A DNA stretch of 64,000 bases from Squalus acanthias (Eukaryota), in assembly GCA_030390025.1 (NCBI GenBank), contig CM059431.1, positions 111,602,001-111,666,000 of the forward strand, given 5' to 3'. Position numbers and translations under genes: made by a program. Below the pieces are notes generated by a model. That model ran no database searches. It saw only the letters and a program-made list of their open reading frames with translations, and had not been told where the DNA came from. Every line of letters starts with the position of its first letter. The first letter of the stretch is position 1. Positions 1-63,744 of the stretch are shown here, piece by piece.

Positions 1-276
1 CCCAGAATTCACAATATAAACACAGAAAAAATGTATTCAAATCTTTTCAGGTAGGGTAGCTGTGAGAGAATCTCAGGTAGGGTAGCTGTGAGAGAATCAT
101 TTTTTCTGTGTTTATATTGTGAATTCTGGGAGATTCTCTCACAGCTACCCTACCTGAAGAAGGAGCGACAGCTCCGAAAGCTTGTAATTTTAAATAAATC
201 TGTTGGACTATAACCTGGTGTTGTGCGACTTCTCATTTTTGTCCACCCCAGTCCAACGCCGGCATCTCCACATCAT
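1..276 (+). mobile_element. Penelope-like element end (pLTR plus 3' tail) with inverted arm running off the window edge
   Basis: 99-239 matches the pLTR at ~9903-10043 and 99-276 is the reverse complement of 7413-7590; 1-44 is the same pLTR inverted; contains a hammerhead core at 151-186. Confidence 0.85.
151..186 (+). ncRNA. Minimal type-I hammerhead ribozyme motif (PLE-associated)
   Basis: UAC-CUGAAGA-A-GGAGC(GACA)GCUCC-GAAAGCUU-GUA: CUGANGA/GAAA core, 5-bp stem II, palindromic AAGCUU in place of stem III, UAC/GUA stem I. Confidence 0.8.
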
Positions 277-4083: not shown

Positions 4084-4173
4084 CTGAGAACACGAGGAAA
4101 TATTTTTGAAATTCTTTTCAAGTACAACTGTTTTGGTATCGGGACTGATGAGGTTAACTTCAAACCGACCGAC
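4084..4173 (-). CDS. TBC1D4: TBC1D4 coding exon (equivalent to human exon 3)
   Basis: 90 nt, ttttcatAG|GTC...CAG|GTttgt; my translation is [30 protein letters not shown] (not in the ORF track). Confidence 0.95.
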
Positions 4174-6291: not shown

Positions 6292-7502
6292 AGAGTTTCC
6301 ACATGTACGCTGATGACACCCAGCTCTACCTCACTACCACTTCTCTCAAGCCCTCCACGGTCTCTAAATTGTCAGACTGCTTGTCCGACATCCAGTTCTG
6401 GATGAACAGAAATTTTCTCCAATTAAATATTGGGAAGACATAAGCCATTGTTTTCGGTCCCCGCCACAAACTCCATTCCCTAGCCACTGACTCCATCCCT
6501 CTCCCTAACATCTGTCTGAGGCTGAACCACACTGTTCGCAACCTTGGTGTCATATTTGACCCTGAAATGAGCTTCCGACCACATATCCGCAGCATAACTA
6601 AGACCGCCTATTTCCACCTCCGTAACATCCCCCGTCTCCGCCCTTGCCTCAGCTGATCCGCTGCTGAAACACTCATCCATACCTTTGTTACCTCTAGACT
6701 TGACTATTCCAATGCACTCCTGGCTGGCCTCCCACATTCTACCCTACGTAAACTTGAGGTCATCCAAAACTCGGCTGCCCGTGTCCTAACTCGCACCAAG
6801 TCTCGTTCACCCATCACCCCTGTGCTCGCTGACCTACACTGGCTCCCAGTTAAGCAACGCCTCGATTTCAAAAGTCTCATCCTAGTTTTCAAATCCCTCC
6901 ATGGCCTCGCCCCTCCCTATCTCTGTAATCTCCTTCAGCCCCACAACCGCCCAAGATATCTGTGCTCCTCTAATTCTGCCCTCTTGAGCATCCCTGATTA
7001 TAATCGCTCAACCATTGGTGGCCGTGCCTTCTGTTGCCTAGGCCCTAAGCTCTGGAATTCCCTGCCGAAACCTCTCCGCCTCGCTACCTCTCTTTCCTCC
7101 TTTAAGACGTTCTTTGACCAAGCTTTTGGTCACGTGCCCTAATTTCTCCTTATGTGGCTCGGTGTCAAATTTTCTTTGTCTTATAAAACTCCTGTGAAGC
7201 GTCTTGGATGTTTTACTACGTTAAAGGCGATATATAAATCTAAGTTGTTGTTGTTATCGTTCCCCTTCTATTTTTCCCCAATCTCCTTGTGGCACGCATG
7301 ATCTATGGCTCAGAGGGCAGGGATGCAAGTAACCTACTCCAAAACCTCCGTCCACTCAGAGGTATATGAGAATCCCAAATGGAAACAACTGCTTATATTA
7401 ACAATAGAGGTCATGATGTGGAGATGCCGGCGTTGGACTGGGGTGGACAAAAATGAGAAGTCGCACAACACCAGGTTATAGTCCAACAGATTTATTTAAA
7501 AT

Positions 7503-7538
7503 TACAAGCTTTCGGAGCTGTCGCTCCTTCTTCAGGTA
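7503..7538 (-). ncRNA. Minimal hammerhead ribozyme motif (sense to TBC1D4 pre-mRNA)
   Basis: Reverse complement of the 151-186 motif. Confidence 0.8.
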
Positions 7539-7767
7539 GGGTAGCTGTGAGAGAATCTCCCAGAATTCACAATATAAACACAGAAAAAATGTATTCAAAT
7601 CTTGCCCTACATCAAAGACACACTAAGAGCACAGCCAAGACAATGAGATGTGTCCCAGGGGGTCCAACGTGTCAAAACACCTGCTGGCTGCATATCCTCT
7701 CCATTTGGGTTTGGTTCTTGTGTTAGTTTTTTTAAAAAAACCTGGAAAGACCGGCCATGATGTCAAG

Positions 7768-8916
7768 TCACGTTCTGTATCGTGACATGAACCCGATATC
7801 GCGATTGAGGCCATCCTCATGAGTGCGGAACTTGGCTATCAGTTTCTGCTCTATGATTTTGCGCTGTCGTGTATCCTGAAGGCCGCCTTGGAGAACGCTT
7901 ACCCGCAGATCCGAGGCTGAATGCCCCTGACTGCTGAAGTGTTCCCCGACTGGGAGGCAACCCTCCTGCCTGGCGATTGTTGCGCGGTGTCCGTTCATAC
8001 GTTGTCTCAGTGTCTGCATGGTCTCGCCGATGTACCATGCTCTGGGGCATCCTTTACTGCAACGTATCAGGTAGACAACGTTGGCCGAGTCACATGAGTA
8101 TGTACCATGTACCTGGTGGGTAGTGTCCTCACGTGTGATGATGGTATCTGTGTCCATGATCTGGCATGTCTTGCAGAGGTTGCCGTGGCAGGGTTGTGTG
8201 GTGTCGTGGTTGCTGTTCTCCTGAAAGATGGGTAATCTGCTGCGAACGATGGTACTTTTGAGGTTAGGCGGCTGCTTGAAGGCGAGTAGTGGAGGAGTGG
8301 GGATGGCCTTAGCAAGGTGTTCGTCGTCATCGATGACATGTTGAAGGCTGCGAAGAACATGGCATAGTTTTTCCGCTCCGGGGAAGTACTGGACGACGTA
8401 GGGTACTCTGTTGGTTGTGTCCCGTGTTCGTCTTCTGAGGAGGTCTATGCGGTTTTTCGCTGTGGCCCGTCGGAACTGTCGATCGACGAGTCGAGCGTCA
8501 TATCCCGTTCTTACGAGGGCGTCTTTCAGTGTCCGTAGGTGTCCATCGCGTTCCTCCTCGTCTGAGCAGATCCTGTGTATTCGCAGGGCTTGTCCATAGG
8601 GGATGGCTTCTTTAACGTGGTTAGGGTGGAAGCTGGAGAAGTGGAGCATCGTGAGGTTGTCCGTGGGCTTGCGATAGAGTGAAGTGCTGAGGCGTCCGTC
8701 TTTGATGGAGATTCGTGTGTCCAAGAATGAAACTGATTCTGAGGAGTAGTCCATGGTGAGTTTGATGGTGGGATGGAACCTGTTGATGCTATCGTGTAGT
8801 CCTTTCAGTGATCCTTCGCCGTGGGTCCAAAGGAAGAAGATGTCGTCGATGTATCTGGTGTACAGCGTTGGTTGGAGGTCCTGTGCAGCGAAGAAGTCTT
8901 GCTCGAACTTGTGCAT
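7768..8916 (-). CDS. Penelope-like RT C-terminal half plus GIY-YIG endonuclease (5'-truncated, frame open)
   Basis: YTRYIDDIF RT motif, FLD, YRKPT; linker C-x4-C-x2-C (PCHGNLCKTC); VVYLIRC...C...WYIGET...R...H...H...E...GLN GIY-YIG pattern. Confidence 0.92.
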   Translation of the reverse strand: MHKFEQDFFAAQDLQPTLYTRYIDDIFFLWTHGEGSLKGLHDSINRFHPTIKLTMDYSSESVSFLDTRISIKDGRLSTSLYRKPTDNLTMLHFSSFHPNHVKEAIPYGQALRIHRICSDEEERDGHLRTLKDALVRTGYDARLVDRQFRRATAKNRIDLLRRRTRDTTNRVPYVVQYFPGAEKLCHVLRSLQHVIDDDEHLAKAIPTPPLLAFKQPPNLKSTIVRSRLPIFQENSNHDTTQPCHGNLCKTCQIMDTDTIITREDTTHQVHGTYSCDSANVVYLIRCSKGCPRAWYIGETMQTLRQRMNGHRATIARQEGCLPVGEHFSSQGHSASDLRVSVLQGGLQDTRQRKIIEQKLIAKFRTHEDGLNRDIGFMSRYRT

Positions 8917-8927
8917 GAAGATGTTGA

Positions 8928-9726
8928 CTCAGACGAGGAGGAACGCGATGGACACCTACAGACACTGAAAGACGCCCTCGTAAGAACGGGATATGACGCT
9001 CGACTCGTCGATCGACAGTTCCGACGGGCCACAGCGAAAAACCGCATAGACCTCCTCAGAAGACGAACACGGGACACAACCAACAGAGTACCCTACGTCG
9101 TCCAGTACTTCCCCGGAGCGGAAAAACTACGCCATGTTCTTCGCAGCCTTCAACATGTCATCGATGACGACGAACACCTTGCTAAGGCCATCCCCACGCC
9201 TCCACTACTCGCCTTCAAGCAGCCGCCTAACCTCAAAAGTACCATCGTTCGCAGCAGATTACCCATCTTTCAGGAGAACAGCAACCACGACACCACACAA
9301 CCCTGCCACGGCAACCTCTGCAAGACATGCCAGATCATGGACACAGATACCATCATCACACGTGAGGACACTACCCACCAGGTACATGGTACATACTCAT
9401 GTAACTCGGCCAACGTTGTCTACCTGATACGTTGCAGTAAAGGATGCCCCAGAGCATGGTACATCGGCGAGACCATGCAGACACTGAGACAACGTATGAA
9501 CGGACACCGCGCAACAATCGCCAGGCAGGAGGGTTGCCTCCCAGTCGGGGAACACTTCAGCAGTCAGGGGCATTCAGCCTCGGATCTGTGGGTAAGCGTT
9601 CTCCAAGGCGGCCTTCGGGATACACGACAGCGCAAAATCATAGAGCAGAAACTGATAGCCAAGTTCCGCACTCATGAGGATGGCCTCAATCGCGATATCG
9701 GGTTCATGTCACAATACAGAACGTGA
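8928..9726 (+). pseudogene. Second, inverted and shorter copy of the Penelope thumb/linker/GIY-YIG region
   Basis: Same protein from SDEEERDGH onward with about 6 substitutions; the upstream part of ORF 8821 is antisense read-through. Confidence 0.9.
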
Positions 9727-9954
9727 CTTGACATCATGGCCAGTCTTTCCAGGTTTTTTTTTAAAACTAACACAAGAACCAAACCCAAATGGAGAGGATA
9801 TGCAGCCAGCAGGTGTTTTGACACGTTGGACCCCCTGGGACACATCTCATTGTCTTGGCTGTGCTCTTAGTGCGTCTTTGATGTAGGGAAAGATTTGAAT
9901 ACATTTTTTCTGTGTTTATATTGTGAATTCTGGGAGATTCTCTCACAGCTACCC

Positions 9955-9990
9955 TACCTGAAGAAGGAGCGACAGCTCCGAAAGCTTGTA
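9955..9990 (+). ncRNA. Minimal hammerhead ribozyme motif
   Basis: Identical to 151-186. Confidence 0.8.
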
Positions 9991-10628
9991 ATTTTAAATA
10001 AATCTGTTGGACTATAACCTGGTGTTGTGCGACTTCTCATTTTCATATTAACAATCACAGCGCATGGTCAGGACAACTTAAAGAGCCCCCTGTGTTCGAT
10101 GTGGTGGAGGGGTAGAGTTGGCATAGTCATGTGTCACTTGCACTGTAGTGATGCAGTGACGTAAGCAATTAATATTTTTGCTTTGTGGTTGGAATAATTA
10201 CACCGTCGTGTCCAACAAAGAAAAAAAACGTTTTTCTGAATTGATTGTGTAATGACAGTGCCGTTGTTAAGCAATGAAATCATGACTTTAAGCTGTCTGA
10301 ACTCGACTAGATTCTAAACAGTGAATGGACCTGTTTAGATGCACGATGAATGGAGTAATTTTTATTAATGTGTTTGTACAGCAATGAATCTGCTGGTTAG
10401 ATATGCGGTATGCATAAATGAACTGCAATGCTATAAACCTGAAATAAATTGCACATATTATACAGATTATCATCTGCATAATAAAAATGAATGTGGGAGA
10501 ATCCTGACTCTTGTAAAGGACACACTTAAAACTGCCGTGCCCCAGTCGTGTGTGGCTATCAGGCACTTTCCTACAGGGAAGTAAGGAAGGTTCCACTGGC
10601 ATGAGGGTCGGTAACCAGAGGACACAGA

Positions 10629-16050: not shown

Positions 16051-16846
16051 TCTGTATACGTACGTCACAAACATAAAACAGCAACGCTGTATAAGTCGCC
16101 TCGTGGTTACTCAGCACTTGGAGCACTGAAAGGGAACGTGTCAAATTAGTGTTCAAAAAAATGTTAAACGCGAGTTAAACGGGAGGCCAGCTTTCCTGCA
16201 GGCCCTGCCGACTTTAATTTGCATACGAGGCCTCGGTTTCCCGCCCGCAGCCAGCCAGATTGCTGGAACTGCCGGGTTTTACAAAGTATGTAAAGCCCGA
16301 CCACAGGCAGTTAAAAACAAAATGAAGGTTAAAGAGGAGGCTTCCAGCCTCATTATAATATTTAAATTGACATCCCACCTCCTGGGAGCGGGCTAGCTGC
16401 CCGCCACCCCCCCCGTCCCGCCTGTTAAAATCGGAAGTGGGCGGATTGGAGGCGGGTTCAGGTCGAGAATCCGATTTTTTAACGATTTAACTACCACCAC
16501 GCCCCCAACCCACCCGTTTCTTAGATTAAAATTCCCCCCGATGAATCCTCCAAAACTCACAGAAAAGGCCACTGAAAGTAAATCAGCAGTTTAAAATCAC
16601 ATGGTCAGTTACAGTATTTCCCCTCAGCAATCTGTGCATGGGTAGGCATGTCAATATGCCAGTACATAATGATGCCCATCTCCGCTGCACCTATGCATCA
16701 ATCTCAGAACCCCCAATCTCTGCACTGGTGGAGATGCTTCAGTACCTCTCCATCCTGCATTACTAGAGGTCACAAGCTTTGCTGATTTCAGTATGTATAC
16801 CCATCTACCTTCTATTTCTTCACAAAAAGTGATAAAACACGCATAC

Positions 16847-17440
16847 CTGAAATAACATTGTCCGATTTTTCTCTGCGTCGGAGGGTTGGACGTGACTTGG
16901 AGCGCTGGCGTGACGGCGTCGGGCTTGCACTTTGGCGCCGAGGTCGGGCATCCTCATGGGCCGAATGCTGGCGACGCTGTTACACCGAGAGCGGAACTCG
17001 GCCTGCTCCTCCTCGAAGGGCGTGTCCCCCAGACTGGGCTCGGTCAGAGCCGAGCCCAAGCCCGGGCCCGACAGGTCGCTCTGACTGCCGCTGGCTGAGG
17101 GCAGGCTGGTGTTGACTGTTGCCTCGTCTGCCACCTCGTGGAGCCGCTTCGAATCCCCCCCGGCATCTCCCTCCTCCTGGCCAGCGGCGGCGTCGGCCAG
17201 GGGCTTCTCGTTCAGCAGCTTCAGCCGCTGCCTTTCCAGCTGGTGCTGGGCAAACTTCTCGATGCAGTCGTCAATAATGGTGGACGGAGCCTTCTTGTGC
17301 GTCACCACCACTTTGCCGCAGTACAGCACTTCGTACTTCTGCGAGTTGTAAAAGGCATCCTCGCTGACTTGCCGGGATTTGGTGTCCCCCTTTAAGGCGG
17401 CCTTGGATACTTGCCGGATGCCGCTGATAACATCAGGAAC
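16847..17440 (-). CDS. TBC1D4: TBC1D4 coding exon (equivalent to human exon 2)
   Basis: 594 nt, ttttAG|GTT...CAG|GTatgc; VPDVISGIRQVSKAALKGDTK...FYNSQKYEVLYCGKV...EFRSRCNSV...RRRHASAPSHVQPSDAEKNRTMLFQ, which matches TBC1D4 rather than TBC1D1. Confidence 0.96.
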
Positions 17441-20795: not shown

Positions 20796-21539
20796 GGGCC
20801 GAAAATTGATCCCGGGACGCGAGAGTACGCACTGCATACTCTCGCGTATTCCCACTCCAATTGCCGGTTTTCTGCATGCCCTGCGCATGCGCTGAAAACC
20901 GGCAATTGCTCTTCCGAAAAGGGGGCGGGGCCTTGCTGCATCGCGTGCGCGCTACAGGCTGCGCGCACGCTGTGCACTTCATGCTTTGGACGCGCAGGTA
21001 AGTAGGGAAGATTTTGGAAATGTAAAAAGGAGGAGTAAGACCCGCTTTTAAGAAGGTAAGTAGTGAATTAAGTATTTTTTTGAATTTTTTTTTACAGGTA
21101 TATCTTTTTTATAGACTTTAAAGACAGGTAAGTTTATTTTTATAACTTTTTAAAAGATTTTAAATTTTTTCAAAAATTTAATTTTTTATTTAAAATGGTT
21201 AATTTAATTAACTATACTTATTTTATTAATGTGATGGGTTTTTTTTTTAATTTAATTGAGGTTTAGCTGTTATTTTGGGGGGGTGTAAGATTCATAAGTC
21301 TCACAGCCATGCTGTGAGACTTATGAATGGAAGATGGTGTGCTGCCATTGGCTCTAACTGAGTCACGTGATCCCACAGCTCGCACGAATTAACTACGCCG
21401 CTGGGATACGCAAGCCCAGCACAGCTGATGTCTGGAACATCAATTTCGTGCGAGCTGGATCAGAAAAAGCATAAGCGAGGTGAGACATCGCGGGGAAGGC
21501 TTACCCCCGCGGGAACAGAGCGAGATCAATTTCTGGGCC
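20796..21539. mobile_element. Harbinger-like MITE family C
   Basis: TIR gggccgaaaattgatc/gatcaatttctgggcc, TSD ATT; CpG-rich ends, AT-rich core. Confidence 0.75.
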
Positions 21540-29324: not shown

Positions 29325-30255
29325 CAAAAGCAAAATACTGCAGGATGCTGGAAATCTGAAATATAAACAGAAACTGCTGGAAACACTCAGCGGGTCAGGC
29401 AGCATCTGTGGAGAGAGAAACAAAGTTAACGTTTCAGGTCAATGACCTTTCGTCAGAACTGGAAAAAGTTAGAGATGTAACAGGTTTTAAGCAAGTGCGG
29501 GGGCAGGGAAAGGAGGGCGGGGAGGAAAGAACAAAAGGGAAGGTCTGTGAAAGGGTGGAAGGCAGGAGAGATTAAATGACAAAAGGGATGAAGGGACACG
29601 GCAAAATGGGATGGCATTGGGACAAGTAAAGAAACAAAAGATGGGTCCAGAGGAGATGTAAATGGTTACAGCAGAACCGTCACCAGCATCTACTGTCGAA
29701 AAAATGAGGGCAGTGGTTATGATCTGAAATTGTTGAACTCGATGTTGAGTCCAGCAGGTTGCCTAATCAAAAGATGAGGTGCTGTTCCTCAAGCTTCCAT
29801 TGAGCTTCATTGGAACAGTGTAGGTGGCTGTGGAAAGGGGCAGAGAATTAAAATGACAAGCAACCGGCTTGCAGACTGAACGTTGGTGTTCTGCAAAGCG
29901 GTCACCCAATCTGCATTTGCTCTGCCCAGTGTAGAGGAGACCGCGCCGTGAGCAGCGAACACAGTGTACTAAATTGAAAGAAGTACAAGTAAATCGCTGT
30001 TTCACCTGGAAGGAGTGCTTGGGGCCCTGGACGAGGTGAAAGGGCAGGTGTTGCATTTCCTGCGCTTGTACGGGAAGGTGTCATGGGTAGCAGAGCGAAT
30101 ATTGGGGGTATTGAAGAGTGGACCAGGGTGTCGTGGACGGAATGGTCCCTTTGGAATTGCTTTGCACCATTACCCATCTGAGATTTAATTACTCCTGCCT
30201 CCTACCCTATCACAGACCTTTCCTTTTGTTCTTCCACCCCCCGCTCCCTGCCCAC
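29325..30255 (-). mobile_element. Second Penelope-like family: decayed GIY-YIG end plus pLTR, with a short inverted arm at ~30180-30252
   Basis: FTCTSFNLVHCVRCSRRGLLYTGQSKCRLGDRFAEH (degenerate GIY-YIG); hammerhead at 29424-29460; 30180-30252 is an inverted copy of ~29500-29578. Confidence 0.8.
29424..29460 (-). ncRNA. Minimal hammerhead ribozyme motif, family 2
   Basis: AGUU-CUGACGA-A-AGGUC(AUU)GACCU-GAAACGUU-AACU. Confidence 0.8.
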
Positions 30256-35661: not shown

Positions 35662-37982
35662 AGTCATAGTCATAGAGTTATACAGCACAGAAAGAGGCCC
35701 TTCGACCCATCGTGTCCGTGCCGGCCATCAAGCCCTGTCTATTCTAATCCCATTTTCCAGCACTTGGTCCGTAGCCTTGTATGCTATGGCGTTTCAAGTG
35801 CTCATCTAAATGCTTCTTGAATGTTGTGAGGGTTCCTGCCTCTACCACCCTTTCAGGCAGTGAGTTCCAAATTCCAACCACCCTCTGGGTGAAAAAGTTT
35901 TTCCTCAAATCCCCTCTAAACCTCCTGCCCCTTACCTTGAAACTATGCCCCCTGGTTATTGACCCCTCTACTAAGGGGAAAAGTTCCTTTCTATCTACCC
36001 TATCTATGCCCCTCATAATTTTGTACACCACAATCAGGTCCCCCCTCAGCCTTCCCTGCTCTAAATAAAACAACCCCAGCCTGTCCAGTCTCTCTTCATA
36101 GCTGAAGCGCTCCAGCCCAGGTGACATCCTGGTGAATCTCCTCTGCACCCTCGCCAATGCAATCACATCCTTCCTATAGTGTGGCGACCAGAACTGCACA
36201 GAGTATTCCAGCTGTGGCCTAACTAGCGTTTTGTACAGCTCCATCATAACCTCCCTGCTCTTATATTCTATGCCTCGGCTAATGAAGACAAGTATCCCAT
36301 ATGCCTTTTTAACCACCTTATCTACCTGTCCTGCTGCCTTCAGGGATCTATGTACATGCACACCAAGGTCCCTCTGATCCTCTGTCCTTCCTAGGGTCCT
36401 ACCATTCATTGTGTATTGCCTTGCCTTGTTAGTCCTCCCAAAATGCATCACCTCACACTTTTCAGGGTTAAATTCCATTTGCCACTGTTCTGCCCATCTG
36501 ACCAACCCGTCTATATCGTCCTGTAGCCTGAGGCTTCCCTCCTCGCTATTTACCACTCCACCAATTTTCGTGTCATCTGCGAACTTACTGATCATACCTC
36601 CTACATTCATATCTAAATCATTAATGTACACTACAAACAGCAAGAGATCCAGCACCGATCCCTGCGGTACACCACTGGACACAGGCTTCCGGTCACAAAA
36701 GCAACCTTCGACCATCACCCTCTGCCTCCTGCCACTGAGCCAATTTTGGATCCAATGTGTCAAATTGCCCTGGATCCCATGGGCTCTTACCTTCTTGACC
36801 AGTCTCCCATGCGGGACTTTGTCAAAAGCCTTACTGAAGTCCATGTTGACTACATCAACTGCACTACCCTCATCCACACACCAAGTCACCCCCTCAAAAA
36901 ATTCAACCAAATTGGTCAGACATGATCTCCCCCTGACAAAGCCATGCTGACTATCCTTGATTAATCCTTGCCTCTCCAAGTGGAGACTAATTCTGTCCCT
37001 CAGAATTTTTTCCAATAATTTCCCTATCACTGATGTTAGGCTCACTGGCCTGTAATTCCCTGGTTTATCCCTACTACCCTTCTTGAATAATGGTACTACG
37101 TTAGCTGTCCTCCAGTCCTCTGGCACCTCCCCTGTGGCCAGAGAGGTTCTGAAAAATTTGTGTCAGAGCCCCTGCAATCTCCTCCCTTGCCTCATACAGC
37201 AGCCTGGGATACATCTCGTCTGGGCCTGGGGATTTATCCACTTTTAAGCCCGCTAAAACCTCCTCCCTCTCAATGCTAATTTGTTCAAGTATATCACAAT
37301 CCCCCTGCCTGATTTCTATGCCGACATCGTCCTTCTCCATAGTAAACACAGATGCAAAATATTCATTTAAAACCTCACCTACATCTTCCGGCTCTATACA
37401 CAGATTGCCACTTTGGTCCCTAATGGGCCCTACTCTTTCCCTGGTTATCCTCTTGCCCTTAATATGCTTATAAAACACCTTGGGATTTTCCTTTATTTTG
37501 CCCGCCAGTGTTTTTTCATGCCCCCTCTTCGCTGTCCTAATTTCTTTTTTAAGTACCCCCCTGCACTTTCTATACTCCTCTAGGGCTTCCACTGTTTTTA
37601 GACCTTTGTATCTGCCAAAAGCCTCCCTTTTTTTCCTAATCCATTCTTGTATATCCCTTGACATCCAGGGTTCCCTGGGCTTGTTGGTCCCACCCTTGAC
37701 CTTTACGGAAACATGTTGGCGTTGTACTCTCTCTATTTCCTTTCTGAAAGACTCCCACTGATCTGATGTGGATTTTCCTACAAGTAGCTGATCCCAGTCC
37801 ACTTTGGCCAGATCCTGCCTTATCATATTAAAATCGGCCTTCCCCCAATTTAGAACCTTTATTTCTGGCCCATCTTTGTCCTTTTCCATGACTACCTTAA
37901 ATCTCACCGAATTATGGTCACTGTCACCAAAATGCTCTCCTACCGACACTTCTACCACTTGCCCGGCTACGTTCCCTAGAAT
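35662..37982 (-). mobile_element. CR1 LINE, 5'-truncated, ORF2 nearly intact (one frameshift near 37120-37160)
   Basis: ORFs 37101-37958 (GDSDHN...PGPDEMYPR) and 35744-37126 (complete RT, KFADDTK); (catagt)n tail. Confidence 0.93.
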
Positions 37983-44119: not shown

Positions 44120-47100
44120 TAATTCAGAGCAGCTGAAGGCAGTTAATTCGGGAAACTAGGCCTATAAAAACAGGCATCGCAGTGCGATTTACACTGAGTG
44201 CGGTTTGAACAGAGTGCTGGGAGTTAGGTGGGTGAGGAGTGGAAGGAGGAGCTCCCTTGCTTCGCCTTTGCTTTCCCTAACTTTTCACCCTGGAGGAATT
44301 GGTTCTTACTTTACACCCAGGAAAGAGTCCGAGAGCGGGAGCAGTCAAACAACAACAACTACAAAACCGCTAAAGTGACGTCACAACCAGGGAAGGAGCT
44401 GATTGGTAAGTAGGACCTGGTGAGTATTTCTACAGTCCAGTCGTTAAAGTAAAAGTAAGGTCTCTAGTTTAGAGTAAGTAGTATGTAAAGTGAAGTAAGG
44501 TTCCTAGTGTATTTAATATTCTTTAATTTAGAGGAAGGAAAGGGAGTAAATTAAGGGTAGGACATGGCAGGGCAGCTCGGCAGCGTGGAATGCTCCTGTG
44601 CTATGTGGGAAGTCAGGGACACTTTAGGTGTCCAGGGCGAACACATGTGCAGGAAGTGTCTCCAGCTGCAGCTACTCAAAATCTGCGTTTCGGAGCTGGA
44701 GCAGCGGCTGGAGTCACTGTGGAGCATCCGCGAGGCTGAGATCTACGTGGATAGCACGTTTAACGAGGTGGTCACACCGCAAGTAAAGAGTGCACAGGCA
44801 GAAAGGGAATGGGTGACCGCCAGACAGAGTAAAAGAACTAGGAAGGTAGTGCAGGAGTCCCCTGGGTCCATCTCCCTCTCCGACAGATTTTCCGTTTTGG
44901 ATATTGCTGGGGGAGATGGTTTCTCAGGGGAATGCAGCAAGTCCGTGGCACTACGAGTGGCTCAGCTGCACAGGAGGGGAGGAAAAAGAGTGGGAGAGCA
45001 ATAGTGATAGGGGATTCTATTGTAAGGGGAACAGATAGACGTTTCTGTGGCCACAGACGTGACTCCAGGATGGTATGTTGCCTCCCTGGTGCCAGGGTCA
45101 AGGATGTCACTGAACGGCTGCAGGACATTCTGAAGGGGGAGGGTGAACAGCCAGCGGTCATGGTCCATATCGGTACCAACGACATAGGTAGAAAGAGGGA
45201 TGAGGTCCTGCAAGCAGAATATAGAGAGCTAGGAAATAAATTAAAAAGCAGGACCTCAAAGGTAGTAATCTCAGGATTACTCCCAGTGCCACGTGCTAGC
45301 GAGAGCAGAAATAGGAGATTAGACCAGATGAATGCGTGGCTGGAGAGAGAGATGGTGTAGGAGGGAGGGATTTAAATTCCTGGGGGAAAAAATTCAGTAT
45401 CGCTCCGTTTGGGGCGCAATTATCGGCTGTGCGCAAAGTTTAACGCCTGGCGCTAATTATCGCCTCCGACTGCAAACTTGGCTTTTATCGCCCCTGGAGG
45501 TGATTGGAGCGCTAAATCAGGCGCTACACACCTGTCTTAAGGCGCAAAGGTCGAGGAGCGAGGCGCTACCTCAGAGCACTGGCGAAGCTCATGTGATGTC
45601 AGTCAGCAATGGAACACAGACACAATGGCGCCGGCCAGTTCTTAAAGGGGAGGGTCGATCTTGCTCTCCATCCACATCCTGCTCATTGCAGTCTTGAATC
45701 TCGGCCTGGAGAGACCTGTACATCAAATCTGCTGGAAAGAACAATGGAGAGAACCAGGGAAAGAGCTCAGAGTGCAGCCCCCACAGTCTCTTCTAAATAG
45801 ATGCAAGGAAGGGCAAATCAAAATGAACCTGCAAAGTGCTGCTCAGTACACAAACTCCTTCACACAGCGTTGAATCTCTCCAGAAGTCTCCCTCTCACTC
45901 TCTCAGAATGCGTGGTGCAAAAATGTCACCAACAAAAAAAAGGCAGGAAGCGTTCGCCTTTAAATAGCGCTCTCCCAGTCCCTTCCTGACTGCAAAACGC
46001 TCCCCTCAACCTGTCGTTGCTAGCAGCAGGCGGGAAGGCAGGGGGCGCCACTCAATATCCGCTCCGGGGCGATACCGTGGCGTTGCGCACTCGACTGACG
46101 TCACGATCTGCCGGTGCAGGAGATTGTGGCGGTAGTGTTTAGCGCCGCCGCAAAATGTCTGGTCGATTTCGCGAGAGGCACAGATATCACCGTGCCCGGG
46201 CGCTAGTTGCTTTGCGCCCCATTAGCGCCCTCTTAAGGCGCTAACGGGAGGTGCAAACCAACTGAATTTTCTCCCCGAGGCATTGGGACCGATTCTGGGG
46301 AAGGTGGGACCTGTACAAGCTGGACGGGTTACACCTTGGCAGTGCCGGGACCAATATTTTCGCTGGGGATTTGCTACTGCTGTTGGGAAGGATTTAAACT
46401 AGTTTGTCAGGGGCTGAGACTGAGAACCTAAGTGTGGGCCCAGAACGGAGAGAAACAAAGCTGGAAGTGCAAGTTAGAAAAGTAGTCAGCAAAACTAGTA
46501 GGGGGCAGAAAGAAAGGCCAACAGTAAAGAGGGTCAAAGTGCAGAAAAATATTAAACAGGCAAAATTGAAGGCACTTTATCTAAATGCACGTAGCATTCG
46601 CAACAAGGTGGATGAATTAATGGCACAAATAGAAGTAAATGGGTATGATGTAATTGCCATTACAGAGACATGGTTGCAGGGTAACCAAAGCTGGGAACTG
46701 AATGTTCCAGGGTACTCAACATTTAGGAAGGACAGACAAAAAGGAAAAGGAGGTGGCGTAGCGCTGTTAATAAGGGATGAGATCGGTACGGTAGAGATAA
46801 AAGATCTTGGCTCGGCAGATCGTGATGTAGAACTGGAATCAGTTTGGGTGGAGCTAAGAAAAAGCAAAGGGCGGGAAACATTGGTGGGAGTTGTGTATAG
46901 GCCACCAAACAGTAATGGTAATATAGGGCACAGTATCAATCAAGAAATTAGAAGTGCATGTAACAAGGGCAATACGGTAATCATGGGGGACTTTAATCTA
47001 CATATTGACTGGGCAAATCAAATTACCACTAATGGTGTGGAGGACGAATTCTTGGAATGCATGCAAGATGGTTTCCTGGATCAGTATGTGGAGGAACCAA

Positions 47101-49172
47101 CCAGGGAACAGGCTATTCTGGATCTGGTACTGTGTAATGAGAAAGGGCTAATCAATAATCTTGTGGTAAAGGGGCCTTTAGGGACAAGTGACCATAATAT
47201 GATTGAATGTTACATTAAGTTTGAGAGTGATGTAGTCCAATCTGAAACTAAGGTCTTCAATCTAAACAGAGGAAACTACAAGGGTATGAGGGACAAGTTG
47301 ACCATGGTAGATTGGGAGACTACACTAAAAGGTATGAAGGTGGACATACAATGGCTAGCATTCAAGGAAATAATGCATAATTTGCAACAAACATATATTC
47401 CTCTAGGACATAGAAACCCAAAAGGAAAAGTGATCCAACCATGGCTAACAAAAGAAATTAAAGCTAGTATTAAGTCAAAGGAGGAAGCTTATAAAGTTGC
47501 CAGAAAAAAGCGGTCAGCTGAGGATTGGGATCTTTTTAGAAATCAGCAAAGGAGGACCAAGAAATTGATAAAGAAAGGGAAAATGGAATATGAACACAAA
47601 CTAGCGAAAAATATAAAAACGGATTGTAAAAGCTTCTATATGTATGTGAAAAGGAAAAGACTGGTGAAGGTAAATGTAGGTCCTGTACAGTCAGAGACAG
47701 GAGAATTTATAATGGGGAATGAGGAAATGGCAAAGAAATTAAATAAATACTTTGTTACTGTCTTCACGGAGGAAGACACAAAAAACCTCCCAGAAATACG
47801 AGAAAACCAAGGGTGTGGCGAGAATGAGGAACTTAAAGAAATTATTATTAGAAACAGTACTAGCAAAATTAATGGGACTAAAAGTTGATAAATCCCAAGG
47901 ACCGGATGACCTACATCCTAGGGTTTTGAAAGAGGTGGCCATTGGGATAGTGGACGCATTGGTTGTCATCTTCCAAAATTCTATAGATTCTGGAACGGTT
48001 CCTGCAGATTGGAGGATAGCAAATATAACCCCGCTATTTAAGAAAGGAGGGAGAGAGAAAACGGGGAACTACAGACCTGTTAGCCTCACATCAGTAGTTG
48101 GGAAAATGCTGGAATCTATTATAAAGGATGCAATAACTGGGCACTTAGAAACTAATAGTAAGATTGGGAAGAGTCAACATGGATTTATGAAAGGGAAATC
48201 CTGTTTGACAAACCTATTGGAATTCTTTGAGGATGTAACTAGTGGAGTAGACAAAGGGTTACCGGTAGATGTGGTGTATCTGGATTTTCAGAAGGCCTTC
48301 GATAGGGTCCCACGCAAGAGGTTGGTGAACAAAATTAGGGCACATGGAATTGGGGGTAATATACTAGCATGGATTGAGAATTGGTTAACAGACAGAAAAC
48401 AGAGAGTAAGGATAAACGGGTCTTTTTCAGGATGGCAGGCTGTGACTAGTGGGGTACCACAAGGATCGGTGCTTGGGCCCCAGATATTCACAATCTATAT
48501 CAATGATTTGGACGAGGGGACTAAATGTAACATTTCCACATTTGCTGATGATACAAAGCTAGGTGGCAGTGTCAGTTGTAAAGAGGATGTGAAGAGGCTT
48601 CAAGGGGATCTTGACAGGCTCAGTGAGTGGATGAGAACATGGCAGATGGAATATAATGTGGATAAATGTGAAGTTATCCACTGTGGTAGAACAAACAGAA
48701 AGGGAGAGTATTTCCTAAATGGTGAAAGATTGGGGAATGCAGATGCTCAAAGGGACCTGGGTAGCCTTGTACATGAGTCACTGAAAGTGAATGTGCAGGT
48801 GCAGCAAGCCATTAGGAAGTCAAATGGTATGCTGGCCTTCATTACAAGAGGATTTGAGTACAGAAGTAAAGAACTCTTACTCCAATTATATAGGGTCTTG
48901 GTGAGACCACACCTGGAGTACTGTGTACAATTTTGGTCTCCTTACCTAAGGAAGGATATACTTGCCATAGAGGGAATGCAATAAAGGTTCACGAGATTGA
49001 TTCCTGGGATGGCGGGGCTGTCGTATGAGAAGAGATTGAGTAAACTAGGTCTGTATTCTCTTGAATTCAGAAGAATGAGAGGGGATCTCATGGAAGCATA
49101 CAAAATTATTACAGGGCTTGATAGGGTGGATGCTAGGAGAATGTTTCCCTTGGCTGGAGAGTCTAGAACCAG
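44120..49172 (+). mobile_element. Near full-length CR1 LINE: 5' UTR, ORF1 (Zn finger/leucine zipper plus SGNH esterase), ORF2 (APE-RT); frameshifted, MITE-interrupted, 3' end missing
   Basis: 44564 ORF with CxC..CRKC plus coiled coil; 44932 ORF IVIGDSIVRG...HIGTND; 46404 APE (YLNARS, ITETW, GDFN, SDH); 47752 RT (FADDTK). 5' boundary approximate. Confidence 0.92.
45383..46276 (+). mobile_element. Harbinger-like MITE family B inserted in CR1 ORF1
   Basis: Highly similar to 33679-34569; TIRs present; TSD not cleanly resolved. Confidence 0.8.
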
Positions 49173-54908: not shown

Positions 54909-55375
54909 TATGTGGGGGTGACTTTGGTCTCGGACGGTCGTGCAAATCAGCACCCTGATTTACACCCTGCCCGAATTTCTTATCCATTAACTTCAATAGC
55001 AAAGAAAAACCGGGCGCAGGATAAAACGGGCCTCCGACTCACCATCGCCTGTTTCCCGCTACTGCGGAAGGCCAATTTCGCCTCCTCTTTCTCAACAGTT
55101 TCACAGAAGAGGACGATGAGCCCAAATTTATGCAGTAATGAGGATATTTTATTTGTATTACAACAGGCTATATAAAAGGCTAGCAGGTAAAGTTGACAGT
55201 TTTGTGTAAAAAAAACTTGCAAATAGAAAAGCACGTAGTCTTCTGCAAGTAACAGCATAACAGAACTGAGCAAGTTGAATTAAAAAGTTCTGAATTCTGT
55301 GCTTCAGGTTGCAGAAAGAGCCTGCCTGCCGGTTTTGAGGAGAGAGAAAAAATATCAATGCCCGTCTCAGGGGAA

Positions 55376-55660
55376 AAATGAGAAGTTGCACAACACCAGG
55401 TTATAGTCCAACAGTTTTATTTGAAATCACGAGCTTTCGGAGCGCTGCTCCTTCGTCAGGCAAAGTGAAGGAATACAAATCAGCAAAGCATATATAGACA
55501 GAGAACAATGTGTAGCGTACAGTGTCAGACGACTACAGTAAATCTCACTGACTGCCCTCTATCACACCTCGGCAGAGATACAATCAAGGAAGGCATTACA
55601 TCAAAGACACAGCAAAATACAGCTAAGACAATGAGGTGGGGTCACAGGGGGTTCAGGTCT
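55376..55660 (-). mobile_element. Penelope pLTR fragment (family 1 variant) with hammerhead motif at ~55425-55462
   Basis: gagaagttgcacaacaccaggttatagtccaacag...gctttcggagcgctgctccttcgtcagg; downstream similarity to 7600-7670. Confidence 0.75.
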
Positions 55661-62236: not shown

Positions 62237-62785
62237 TCTGTTTGTGGGAGAGAATGGAGTTTGTGGCAGAGACTGAAGACAATGGCTTTGGTCTTCCCAA
62301 TATTTTTTTTTTTAAATCGGGAAGAAATTTCTGTTCGTCCAGCACTGGATGTCAGACAAGCAGTGTGGAAAATCAGAGGAAGTGGAGGGGTCAAGAGAAG
62401 TGATGGTGAGGTAGAGCTGGGTGTCGTCAGGGTACATGTGGAACCTGACGTTGTGTTTTCGGATGATGTCGCTGAGGGGCAGCATGTAGATGAGAAATAG
62501 AAGGGGACCCAAGGATAGATGCTTGGGGAACTGCAGAGGTAAAGGTGTGGGAGCAGGAAGAGAAGCCATTGCAGGAGATTCTCTTTTGATGTTTAAAAAA
62601 TTAGAGAGTGCTTCGGAAGACACTTAAAGTATGAAGTTGACATGTTTCAATCTAATTCAACACGTCGAAAGTTCAGTAAAATTAAAAGAACTAAGCTTGT
62701 ATAGCTCGTATATGATAGAAGCAATAAAAAAAAGGTTCAGTACTTAGTGGGTTAATGTGGCAAGATAGGCAGCTAGCATTAAAAC

Positions 62786-62975
62786 ATGATGCGGAGATGC
62801 CGGTGTTGGACTGGGGTGGACAAAAGTGAGAAGTCGCACAACACCAGGTTATAGTCCAACAGCTTTATTTGAAATCACAAGCTTTCGGAGCGCTGCTCCT
62901 TCGTCAGGTGAAGTGACCTGACGAAGGAGCAGCGCTCCGAAAGCTTGTGATTTCAAATAAAGCTGTTGGACTATA
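62786..62975. mobile_element. Miniature palindromic Penelope insertion (family 1) with two opposed hammerhead motifs
   Basis: Perfect 60-bp arms 62850-62909 and 62916-62975, 6-nt loop; tail on the left; TSD (ta)gcattaaaac at 62774-62785 and 62974-62985. Confidence 0.9.
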
Positions 62976-63744
62976 GCATTAAAACTTTATAGCTTTATAA
63001 GAACAAAGATAGCAATCTGACGTCCCACTGTTTTCATAGTCATCTCATCAGGTTTATCACTGTTGTAACCTGTGGTGACATCAAGGCCAGTCTTTTATCA
63101 GAAGTAACTGAGACCCAAAACTCCCCAGAGTTAGCAAAGACTGGAAAATTAAGAGACTGAACCGATGAACGTTCCAAGCACGTGGCCTTCATTCAGAGGC
63201 AATCAGGCCGCATTATATGGACAGGCTTTCACTGAATCCCCGCCACCTTTCAGCTTCAAGCCAATTACGTTCCAGTTTAAGATGAAGATCACATGTGCCT
63301 ATCCATTCTTTCAACTGAAAGCCAATTTAAAGTATAGCTGAACTTGCTGCTAGGTTTCAGGATGTAACTAGATAGCGTTTAGAATAGTGCTAGTGTGCTG
63401 AGCTAGGCAGTTTTTCCTGATGGCTAGGATGTTTTTTTGTGCTTGGTGTTAGAGCTGCAGCAGCAATAAAGCATTGATTTTTGTGTTCTATTCTTTACTT
63501 GGTACGTCGAGCCATTTGATGAATTTATATTACATTTTCATCCAAAAATTTACATTATGTGATTTTTTTTTTGTGTCAGCCCTAGACAGTGGAACAGATT
63601 TAAGGAATCATTCTTTTGACTTTGACTCCCAGTGGAAGGCTCGGCCATTCCACAGAGCATAACAGAATTTTAATGCACAGCAGAATTTTCTGAACATTTA
63701 AATTAATAATGGGAAAATCATAGGCAGCCTGAAATTCTGCTGCA

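Follow-up and report, generated by a model that had tools for sequence, protein, structure and literature searches.

A short hammerhead-bearing palindrome in Squalus acanthias as a likely by-product of PLE integration

Introduction

How does a non-coding insert of less than 200 bp come to carry a hammerhead core on each strand inside a perfect palindrome? An insert in Squalus acanthias raises this question, and we analyzed it within a stretch of 64,000 nt, referred to here as the window. The original prediction had read the locus as a very recent insertion of a minimal PLE and, possibly, as a non-autonomous retro-element in its own right.

As reported in the literature, complex insertions of EN+ PLEs combine an inverted 5'-truncated pLTR, a tail of 30–40 bp at one end, and a TSD (PMC8557442, PMC3846280, PMC2377424), and the 30–40 bp tail is described for PLEs in PMC8557442 and PMC11167929. 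Dual min-HHRs on opposite strands, 100–700 bp apart, occur in metazoan PLEs (PMC4209133), and sharks are not among the genomes named in the available text of that paper. Hence, the inverted truncated copy with a one-sided tail and a TSD, and the opposite-strand min-HHRs, are already published PLE features. The new element of this analysis is that the palindrome turns at a predicted start site. Searches of the literature, mostly outside subscription papers, returned no account of mini-palindromes of shark PLEs with a turn at this site.

Results

Architecture of the insert

The insert spans 62786 to 62973 or 62975 (188–190 bp) between two copies of the TSD TAGCATTAAAAC (Table 1). As originally predicted, the TSD measures 10–12 bp; it is 10 or 12 bp long because the first TA of its right copy doubles as the arm end. 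The arms at 62850–62909 and 62916–62975 are 60 nt each and 100% complementary, in agreement with the claim of zero mismatches, and enclose the 6-nt loop GAAGTG. The perfect palindrome therefore covers 126 bp (62850–62975; 60+6+60) of the 190 bp, not the 190 bp first claimed, and the remaining 64 nt (62786–62849) are the single-copy PLE 3' end and tail. This palindrome is the longest in the window, where the runner-up reaches 18 bp; its chance expectation is approximately 1e-30, and its hairpin fold has a z of about −20 on both strands. An 18-bp perfect inverted repeat with a 3-nt loop at 21290–21328 has no connection with the PLE family.

On the minus strand, the insert reads as an inverted piece of 58–60 nt followed by a 131-nt sense end with a 36-nt tail. 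The long arm is 92–94% identical to window copies at 152–276, 7413–7537, and 55374–55468, and the tail length of 36–37 nt is set by the copies ending at 55374 and 10043. Additionally, the flanks contain 66% AT, against 54% for the whole window.

Table 1. Features of the insert, its relatives, and the host gene (positions in the window)
Feature	Position	Strand	Remarks
Left TSD copy	62774–62785	none	TAGCATTAAAAC; 10 bp if TA is assigned to the arm
Right TSD copy	62974–62985	none	also present in X2 contig record 8
Long arm, 131-nt sense PLE 3' end (pseudo-LTR, predicted start site to tail end)	62786–62916	−	
Tail, ~36 nt, at one insert end only	62786–62821	−	copies 55374 and 10043 end at matches to 62822/62823
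Native minimal type I hammerhead motif	62875–62911	−	4-bp stem I; core beginning at 62907; 5-bp stem II; stem III is a palindromic AGCU
Initiator-like TCACTTC, predicted +1 = 62914	62910–62916	−	palindrome loop is 62910–62915; start inferred from motif
Short inverted arm, 58–60 nt	62916–62975	+	exact mirror of 62850–62909; overlaps of 1 nt at the turn and 2 nt (TA) with the target
Second hammerhead motif	62909–62955	+	full core, beginning at 62918; stem I re-formed over the junction
Sister-subfamily inverted PLE insertion, 2.6 kb	7413–10043	−	arms 1117 nt at 98.8%, 361-nt loop
Tail-less related copy	55374–55655	−	extends upstream beyond the turn of the studied insert; shows TATA and initiator
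Related copy with tail and several inverted or duplicated 5' pieces	1–276	+	cut by the window start
TBC1D4 coding exon, residues 138–337 of the shark homolog	16835–17440	−	homolog search

Relatives of the insert and its clade

The 2.6-kb insertion at 7413–10043 contains an open frame of 386 aa with an RT-thumb, a CX4CX2C linker, and a GIY-YIG domain. Its motifs include YIDD, VVY-C-C-YIG, and downstream H residues, as in the CCHH type of GIY-YIG, and CHGNLCKTC at residue 247 matches the CX2-5CxxC linker motif. Direct Pfam scans of the PLE frames gave no match; the frames were identified by homolog search, in which the homologs of the 386-aa frame were RT/GIY-YIG proteins carrying PF00078/PF26215 and, in some, PF01541. 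The CX2-5CxxC motif between RT and EN is the mark of the Neptune and Nematis clades (PMC8557442), and on the linker motif of this related ORF, the studied insert would be the end of a Neptune/Nematis-type PLE. Since its pLTR is 92% identical to the studied insert, the 2.6-kb insertion represents a sister subfamily, not the source of the insert.

Of the three further family members in the window, two are inverted and have junctions that differ from each other and from that of the insert, and no second copy of the GAAGTG junction occurs within the 64-kb window. In the 2.6-kb insertion, the second arm lacks the last 37 nt, that is, the tail. An 11-bp TSD-like repeat (7395–7405 and 10045–10055) flanks this insertion, with 7 extra nt between the repeat and the tail end; in the sense direction, these 7 nt extend the CAT of the tail into a possible ATG start, as if the RT had begun 7 nt inward. 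Its inversion junction has a 1-nt overlap. The copy at 1–276 is 99% identical to the end of the 2.6-kb insertion and has a tandemly repeated inverted piece of 26–29 nt on its 5' side, which suggests several template switches. For the copy at 55374–55655, a BLAST search found no inverted arm.

Collectively, the studied insert displays the features of an EN+ PLE insertion: pLTR kinship to an RT/GIY-YIG element, a TSD in AT-rich DNA, a one-sided tail, and an inverted truncated copy. The claim of a minimal PLE insertion with hammerhead cores and a TSD, made by an RT/GIY-YIG element, is thus borne out; the related 2.6-kb insertion, itself 5'-truncated, has an open RT-thumb/GIY-YIG frame. A search for the family motif in metagenome and viral contigs returned no match. 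Several annotated shark protein isoforms (P0162, P0168, P0174, and P0176) contain pieces of the 386-aa PLE frame at 69–90% identity, through either exonisation or gene-model errors.

Host gene

The 200-residue exon at 17440–16835 is 89% identical to shark TBC1D4, with top matches that are all sharks, and further TBC1D4 exons lie at 4173–4051 and 1845–1717. A Pfam scan of the exon gave no match, and the identification came from the homolog search. As residues 1–137 of TBC1D4 have no match within the 64-kb window, the insert most likely sits in the intron upstream of the 17440–16835 exon (exon 2), judged from these homologies. The TBC1D4 pre-mRNA would then most likely carry the minus strand of the insert. 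The same intron holds long open LINE-like frames for RT and endonuclease (472, 496, and 413 aa) at 35744–37162 and 46398–48984.

Hammerhead motifs and the hairpin that locks them

Each strand carries CUGACGA, an extra A, a 5-bp stem II, and GAAA-GC-UU, so that the predicted complete core is indeed present on both. Both copies show the features of a minimal type I hammerhead, namely the conserved core, the extra nucleotide before G10.1–C11.1, and the palindromic stem III, and the two cores start only 11 nt apart. In the minus copy, the loop consists of native sequence, so that the original 4-bp stem I is retained; the predicted cut of this copy lies between 62879 and 62878. In the plus copy, stem I has 2 bp, a G–G mismatch at pair 3, and 6 pairs made across the junction. 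The turn had been placed just 5' of stem I; instead, the arms stop 2 nt before the core, within stem I. The junction-made 5' strand of the plus copy (62909–62955) can pair with 8 of the 9 positions of its stem I partner, more than in the native copy, probably by chance from internal similarity of the pLTR.

No hammerhead reached the Rfam gathering score in the 64-kb window, and none appeared at E≤10 over 62700–63060, where 8 of the 11 sub-threshold matches were to miRNA hairpin models. The hammerhead call thus depends on the motif together with the published account of min-HHRs (PMC4209133). The 8 miRNA-model matches all lie far below the gathering score and were set aside as generic hairpin signals. 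In stem I, covariation consists of one two-sided change in 4 distinct rows, which was equalled by 259 of 500 shuffles. An unrelated hammerhead-like motif on the minus strand at ~29420–29470, CTGACGA...GAAACGTT with a palindromic AACGTT, apparently belongs to another short repeat family.

On either strand, the antisense arm precedes the ribozyme. The hairpin is predicted to be more stable than a forced hammerhead fold by 62–63 kcal/mol, and the predicted pairing probability of stem II is ≤1e-13 at all 12 prefix lengths tested. Homodimer folding gave no dimeric hammerhead, with energy models that do not represent the hammerhead core. The ribozymes of this copy are therefore predicted to be inert. 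In the available reports, single min-HHRs showed no cleavage in vitro and dimers cleaved weakly (PMC4209133), while the hammerhead motif of a lizard PLE required protein (PMC11167929). The suggestion of a ribozyme with its own antisense lock thus stands as geometry; a route of release is not seen, and single min-HHRs stayed uncleaved in vitro (PMC4209133).

The turn and the predicted start site

Judged by TATA and initiator motifs, the turn lies within 2 nt of a predicted start site, and the core begins 7 nt after the predicted +1. The TCACTTC at the sense 5' end of the long arm is presumably an initiator, as it resembles the consensus. The copy at 55374 has a TATA at −28/−30 before the same initiator position, and the sister subfamily has one at −28 before a looser initiator; such an upstream TATA accompanies 3 of the 675 initiator-like sites in the window. 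The same layout of TATA, 20 bp, and TCACT is found in A. vaga Pen2a (PMC3846280). The other inverted copies in the window (1–276 and 7413–10043) turn away from the start site.

Contigs from 4 of 24 listed runs were compared over 62340–63420: X2 and X5 from organism A, X7 from B, and X9 from D. Contigs that end at 62785 with unrelated flanks number 90 in X2 and 92 in X5, which confirms the 3' boundary of the insert. At 62915/62916, loose ends occur in all four runs, showing that the family extends past the turn; by eye, the consensus of these loose ends has a TATA at −30 in two of the four (X2 and X7) and lacks it in X5 and X9. Moreover, among the contig ends listed, 15 from X2 stop at 62914 and run on into long unrelated sequence.

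Joints listed over the stretch numbered 224, some of them from a flanking repeat. Of the 15 ranked highest, one came from that repeat and was dropped, and together with 8 from a second table this left 22 family joints for examination; these 22 are the top-ranked subset of the tool, and the junction of the studied insert cannot appear as a joint by construction. These best 22 of more than 200 joints are all distinct. Four of the best 22 end at 62912–62916, where approximately one is expected (crude post hoc p=0.017). The deepest of the best-ranked joints links 62913–62916 to the complement at 62875–62878 via a 4-nt overlap, as a snap-back product would. At the predicted cut site (62877–62879), 5–6 of the best 22 joints fall within 1 nt, with about 2 expected (crude p~0.06); this clustering is a hint only, and the AAGCTT palindrome there could itself favour fold-back. 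Seven of the best 22 fall at the stem II loop (62891–62894; crude p 0.02), and some of these probably reflect broken alignments of diverged subfamilies.

Depths of 80–940 (up to 938 in X5) are seen in some joint contigs, against 4–20 on the single-copy flank; some junctions may thus recur, with the proviso from the tool that depth is not copy number. The summed pLTR depth of 0.7–7 million, against 4–20 on the flank, marks the family as abundant and is likewise not a copy number.

Haplotypes and lineage

X2 record 8 spans 62948–63420 and holds the arm end, the TSD, and the right flank in one contig. It differs from the window by a replacement at 62986–62989 and two substitutions, and X2 may be the window's own sample. 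At the replacement, which adjoins the right TSD, the window has 4 nt where this second haplotype has 11 other letters. The orthologous right flank of B and D is ~94–95% identical (23 and 26 differences, besides gaps, over 431 nt) and aligns only from 62990, with no arm, though X7 has 79 further letters. On the left flank (62599–62746), none of the four runs gave contig cover, and no empty-site joint was present among the best-ranked joints; with records dropped by a filter and the joints being a ranked subset, neither point was counted for or against. The letters at 62825 and 62836 prevail in A, with 74–95% of depth, but make up just 0.4–5% in B and D, from which the subfamily looks specific to the lineage of organism A.

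Age of the insert

The original prediction took the zero mismatches as a sign of a very recent insertion from an active source. However, 0 mismatches in 58–72 sites give a 95% upper bound of 4–5% divergence. At the epaulette shark mutation rate of 7e-10 per generation (PMC10587355), this corresponds to 30–37 million generations, somewhat lower given 3 CpGs per arm; zero mismatches thus bound the age only to less than ~30 million generations. Furthermore, a neighbour with the 1.2% arm divergence of the 2.6-kb insertion would give a perfect 70-site stretch 44% of the time. Because up to 4% divergence is compatible with the observed arms, neither a very recent date nor an active source follows from the zero mismatches, and young for a shark is a fair description of the insert.

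Discussion

Based on these observations, the insert is very probably a single 5'-truncated insertion of an abundant PLE, with a hairpin that was built during integration and was likely not inherited from a hairpin parent. This reading follows from the TSD, the 131-nt arm, the mirror arm of 58–60 nt, the overlaps of 1–2 nt, and a parent family that extends past the turn. In the proposed sequence of events, the GIY-YIG endonuclease would make staggered nicks 10–12 bp apart in AT-rich intron DNA, and the RT would begin on a PLE transcript left uncut at the hammerhead, priming in its upstream pLTR at the start site of the tail end. Synthesis would then reach the 5' end of the RNA, placed at the predicted TATA/initiator start (+1 = 62914), and run off there, comparable to retroviral strong-stop DNA. 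The mirror arm would arise either from the cDNA folding back on itself or from the second target end priming on PLE RNA via the TA overlap, in which case a head-to-head joining of both cDNAs would follow, and repair would fill in the TSD. The outcome would be a dead copy, in which the antisense arm is made first in the TBC1D4 pre-mRNA and pairs with the ribozyme as it emerges; what remains in the intron would be an inert hairpin of 60 bp, at most an ADAR or Dicer substrate.

Between fold-back and second-end priming, the balance is near even. Several listed joints look like snap-backs at stem II, which speaks for fold-back, and self-priming on an antisense template was preferred by Arkhipova (2013). 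The second arm of the 2.6-kb insertion ends exactly at the tail boundary, which speaks for second-end priming. Twin priming is known for L1. The window contains two kinds of PLE 3' end, with and without the tail, which match the two RT start sites from which both target strands are extended in vitro (PMC11167929). Against a two-start-site model, the short arm ends 27–29 nt inside the usual second 3' end.

The position of the turn adds a more tentative point. The long arm may be a run-off cDNA that began at the tail start site and stopped where the RNA ended at its 5' side, although we consider this less probable than the by-product origin as a whole. As the core starts 7 nt after +1, it would be copied whole automatically, and complete cores would be explained without selection for twin ribozymes. 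By extension, though this is less likely than not, shark PLE mini-hairpins could form a discrete class of strong-stop-like products, primed in the upstream pLTR, run off at a true RNA end, and snapped back. Their turns would then record where templates had ended, be it at the transcription start (as in this copy), at the stem II hairpin, or at the cut site.

Three other explanations were weighed. The first, which is very unlikely, regards the palindrome as a non-autonomous mini-element: transcription from the host or flank makes a hairpin RNA, which the PLE RT/EN copies from the tail to the far end. The tail and the RT start region are kept, a pLTR by itself can be mobilised in trans (PMC3846280), and the deep junction contigs noted above, with the maximum in X5, would fit repeated copying. 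However, the TATA box is lost, the RT must unwind a perfect duplex of 60 bp, and the RNA 5' end is undefined at the far arm. In addition, such an element should repeat its junction, and a unique junction in each copy had been proposed as the argument against independent amplification. The 64-kb window has no second copy of the junction, and the other junctions, those of the two inverted window copies and of the best 22 of more than 200 joints, all differ, so the suggestion of a retro-element in its own right finds no support here.

The second explanation, slightly less probable still, accepts an integration by-product and adds a function now under selection, as an intronic siRNA or miRNA-like silencer of PLEs or as a switchable ribozyme acting on TBC1D4. 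It draws on the transcribed strand of the likely TBC1D4 intron, on a very stable hairpin with arms that are still perfect, and on precedents in which rotifer PLEs give antisense small RNAs (PMC3846280) and a lizard Penelope is heavily A-to-I edited (PMC5625713). Conversely, the orthologous flank of B and D begins to align past the arm, so that conservation is not apparent, the scores of the miRNA models stay far under the gathering level, and no route unlocks the ribozyme. A 60-bp unbulged stem with a 6-nt loop is also unlike a typical Drosha substrate. Finally, the least probable explanation, a mirror arm that an ordinary truncated copy gained later, through fold-back repair or conversion at the DNA level, or else an assembly artefact, could appeal to the difficulty of assembling palindromes and to the two haplotypes that differ beside the right TSD, but an intact TSD of 10–12 bp encloses both arms, X2 record 8 is an independent contig that runs unbroken from the arm end through the TSD into the right flank, and the layout is standard for PLE integration.

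The layout resembles that of known complex insertions of canonical EN+ PLEs. Similar to A. vaga Pen2a, D. virilis Penelope, and the general scheme (PMC3846280, PMC2377424, PMC8557442), the insert has a head-to-head inversion, a shorter inverted arm, a one-sided tail, and a TSD of comparable size (8–10 bp in those insertions, 10–12 bp here), and the studied family also shares TATA followed by TCACT in the pLTR. In contrast to these insertions, it has no ORF within its total of 188–190 bp, its inverted arm is shorter by 64–66 nt and not by one tail length, and it turns at the predicted start site.

With the min-HHR (Cervera and De la Pena 2014, PMC4209133), the hammerheads share a short stem I (4 bp in the minus copy), the extra nucleotide before G10.1, the G10.1–C11.1 pair, and the palindromic 15.2–16.2; stem II has 5 bp instead of 7–8 bp, and the cores lie 11 nt apart instead of 100–700 bp. 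With PAc, the Poseidon PLE of Anolis carolinensis (Frangieh 2024, PMC11167929), the insert shares two 3' ends one tail apart and an AT-rich target. In both, the template was apparently uncut at the hammerhead, with cDNA passing through the cut site. The CX2-5CxxC linker of the related shark ORF is absent from Penelope/Poseidon in the available descriptions. According to the available text on PAc, both strands were extended and inverted products were not reconstituted (PMC11167929). Non-LTR retrozymes (PMC7229834; bioRxiv 10.64898/2026.07.22.740005) are likewise non-coding, PLE-related, and equipped with type I hammerheads. However, they are head-to-tail tandems with at least 2 same-strand hammerheads, and the insert is a lone head-to-head unit in which either strand has a single sense core; this single unit without tandem same-strand hammerheads rules out a non-LTR retrozyme.

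As one of very many truncated PLE insertions, this single locus matters little in itself, and its value is that of a specimen. The origin of the inverted ends of PLEs and the cutting of min-HHRs in vivo are questions addressed in PMC8557442, PMC3846280, and PMC11167929, and if turns cluster at the start site and at the ribozyme cut site, one shark assembly could inform both. A real pile-up at the cut site, if true, would be in vivo evidence of cleavage by the minimal PLE hammerhead, a point left open in the available text of PMC4209133 and PMC11167929. Intronic hairpins of this kind are, moreover, likely to supply dsRNA to editing or silencing pathways.
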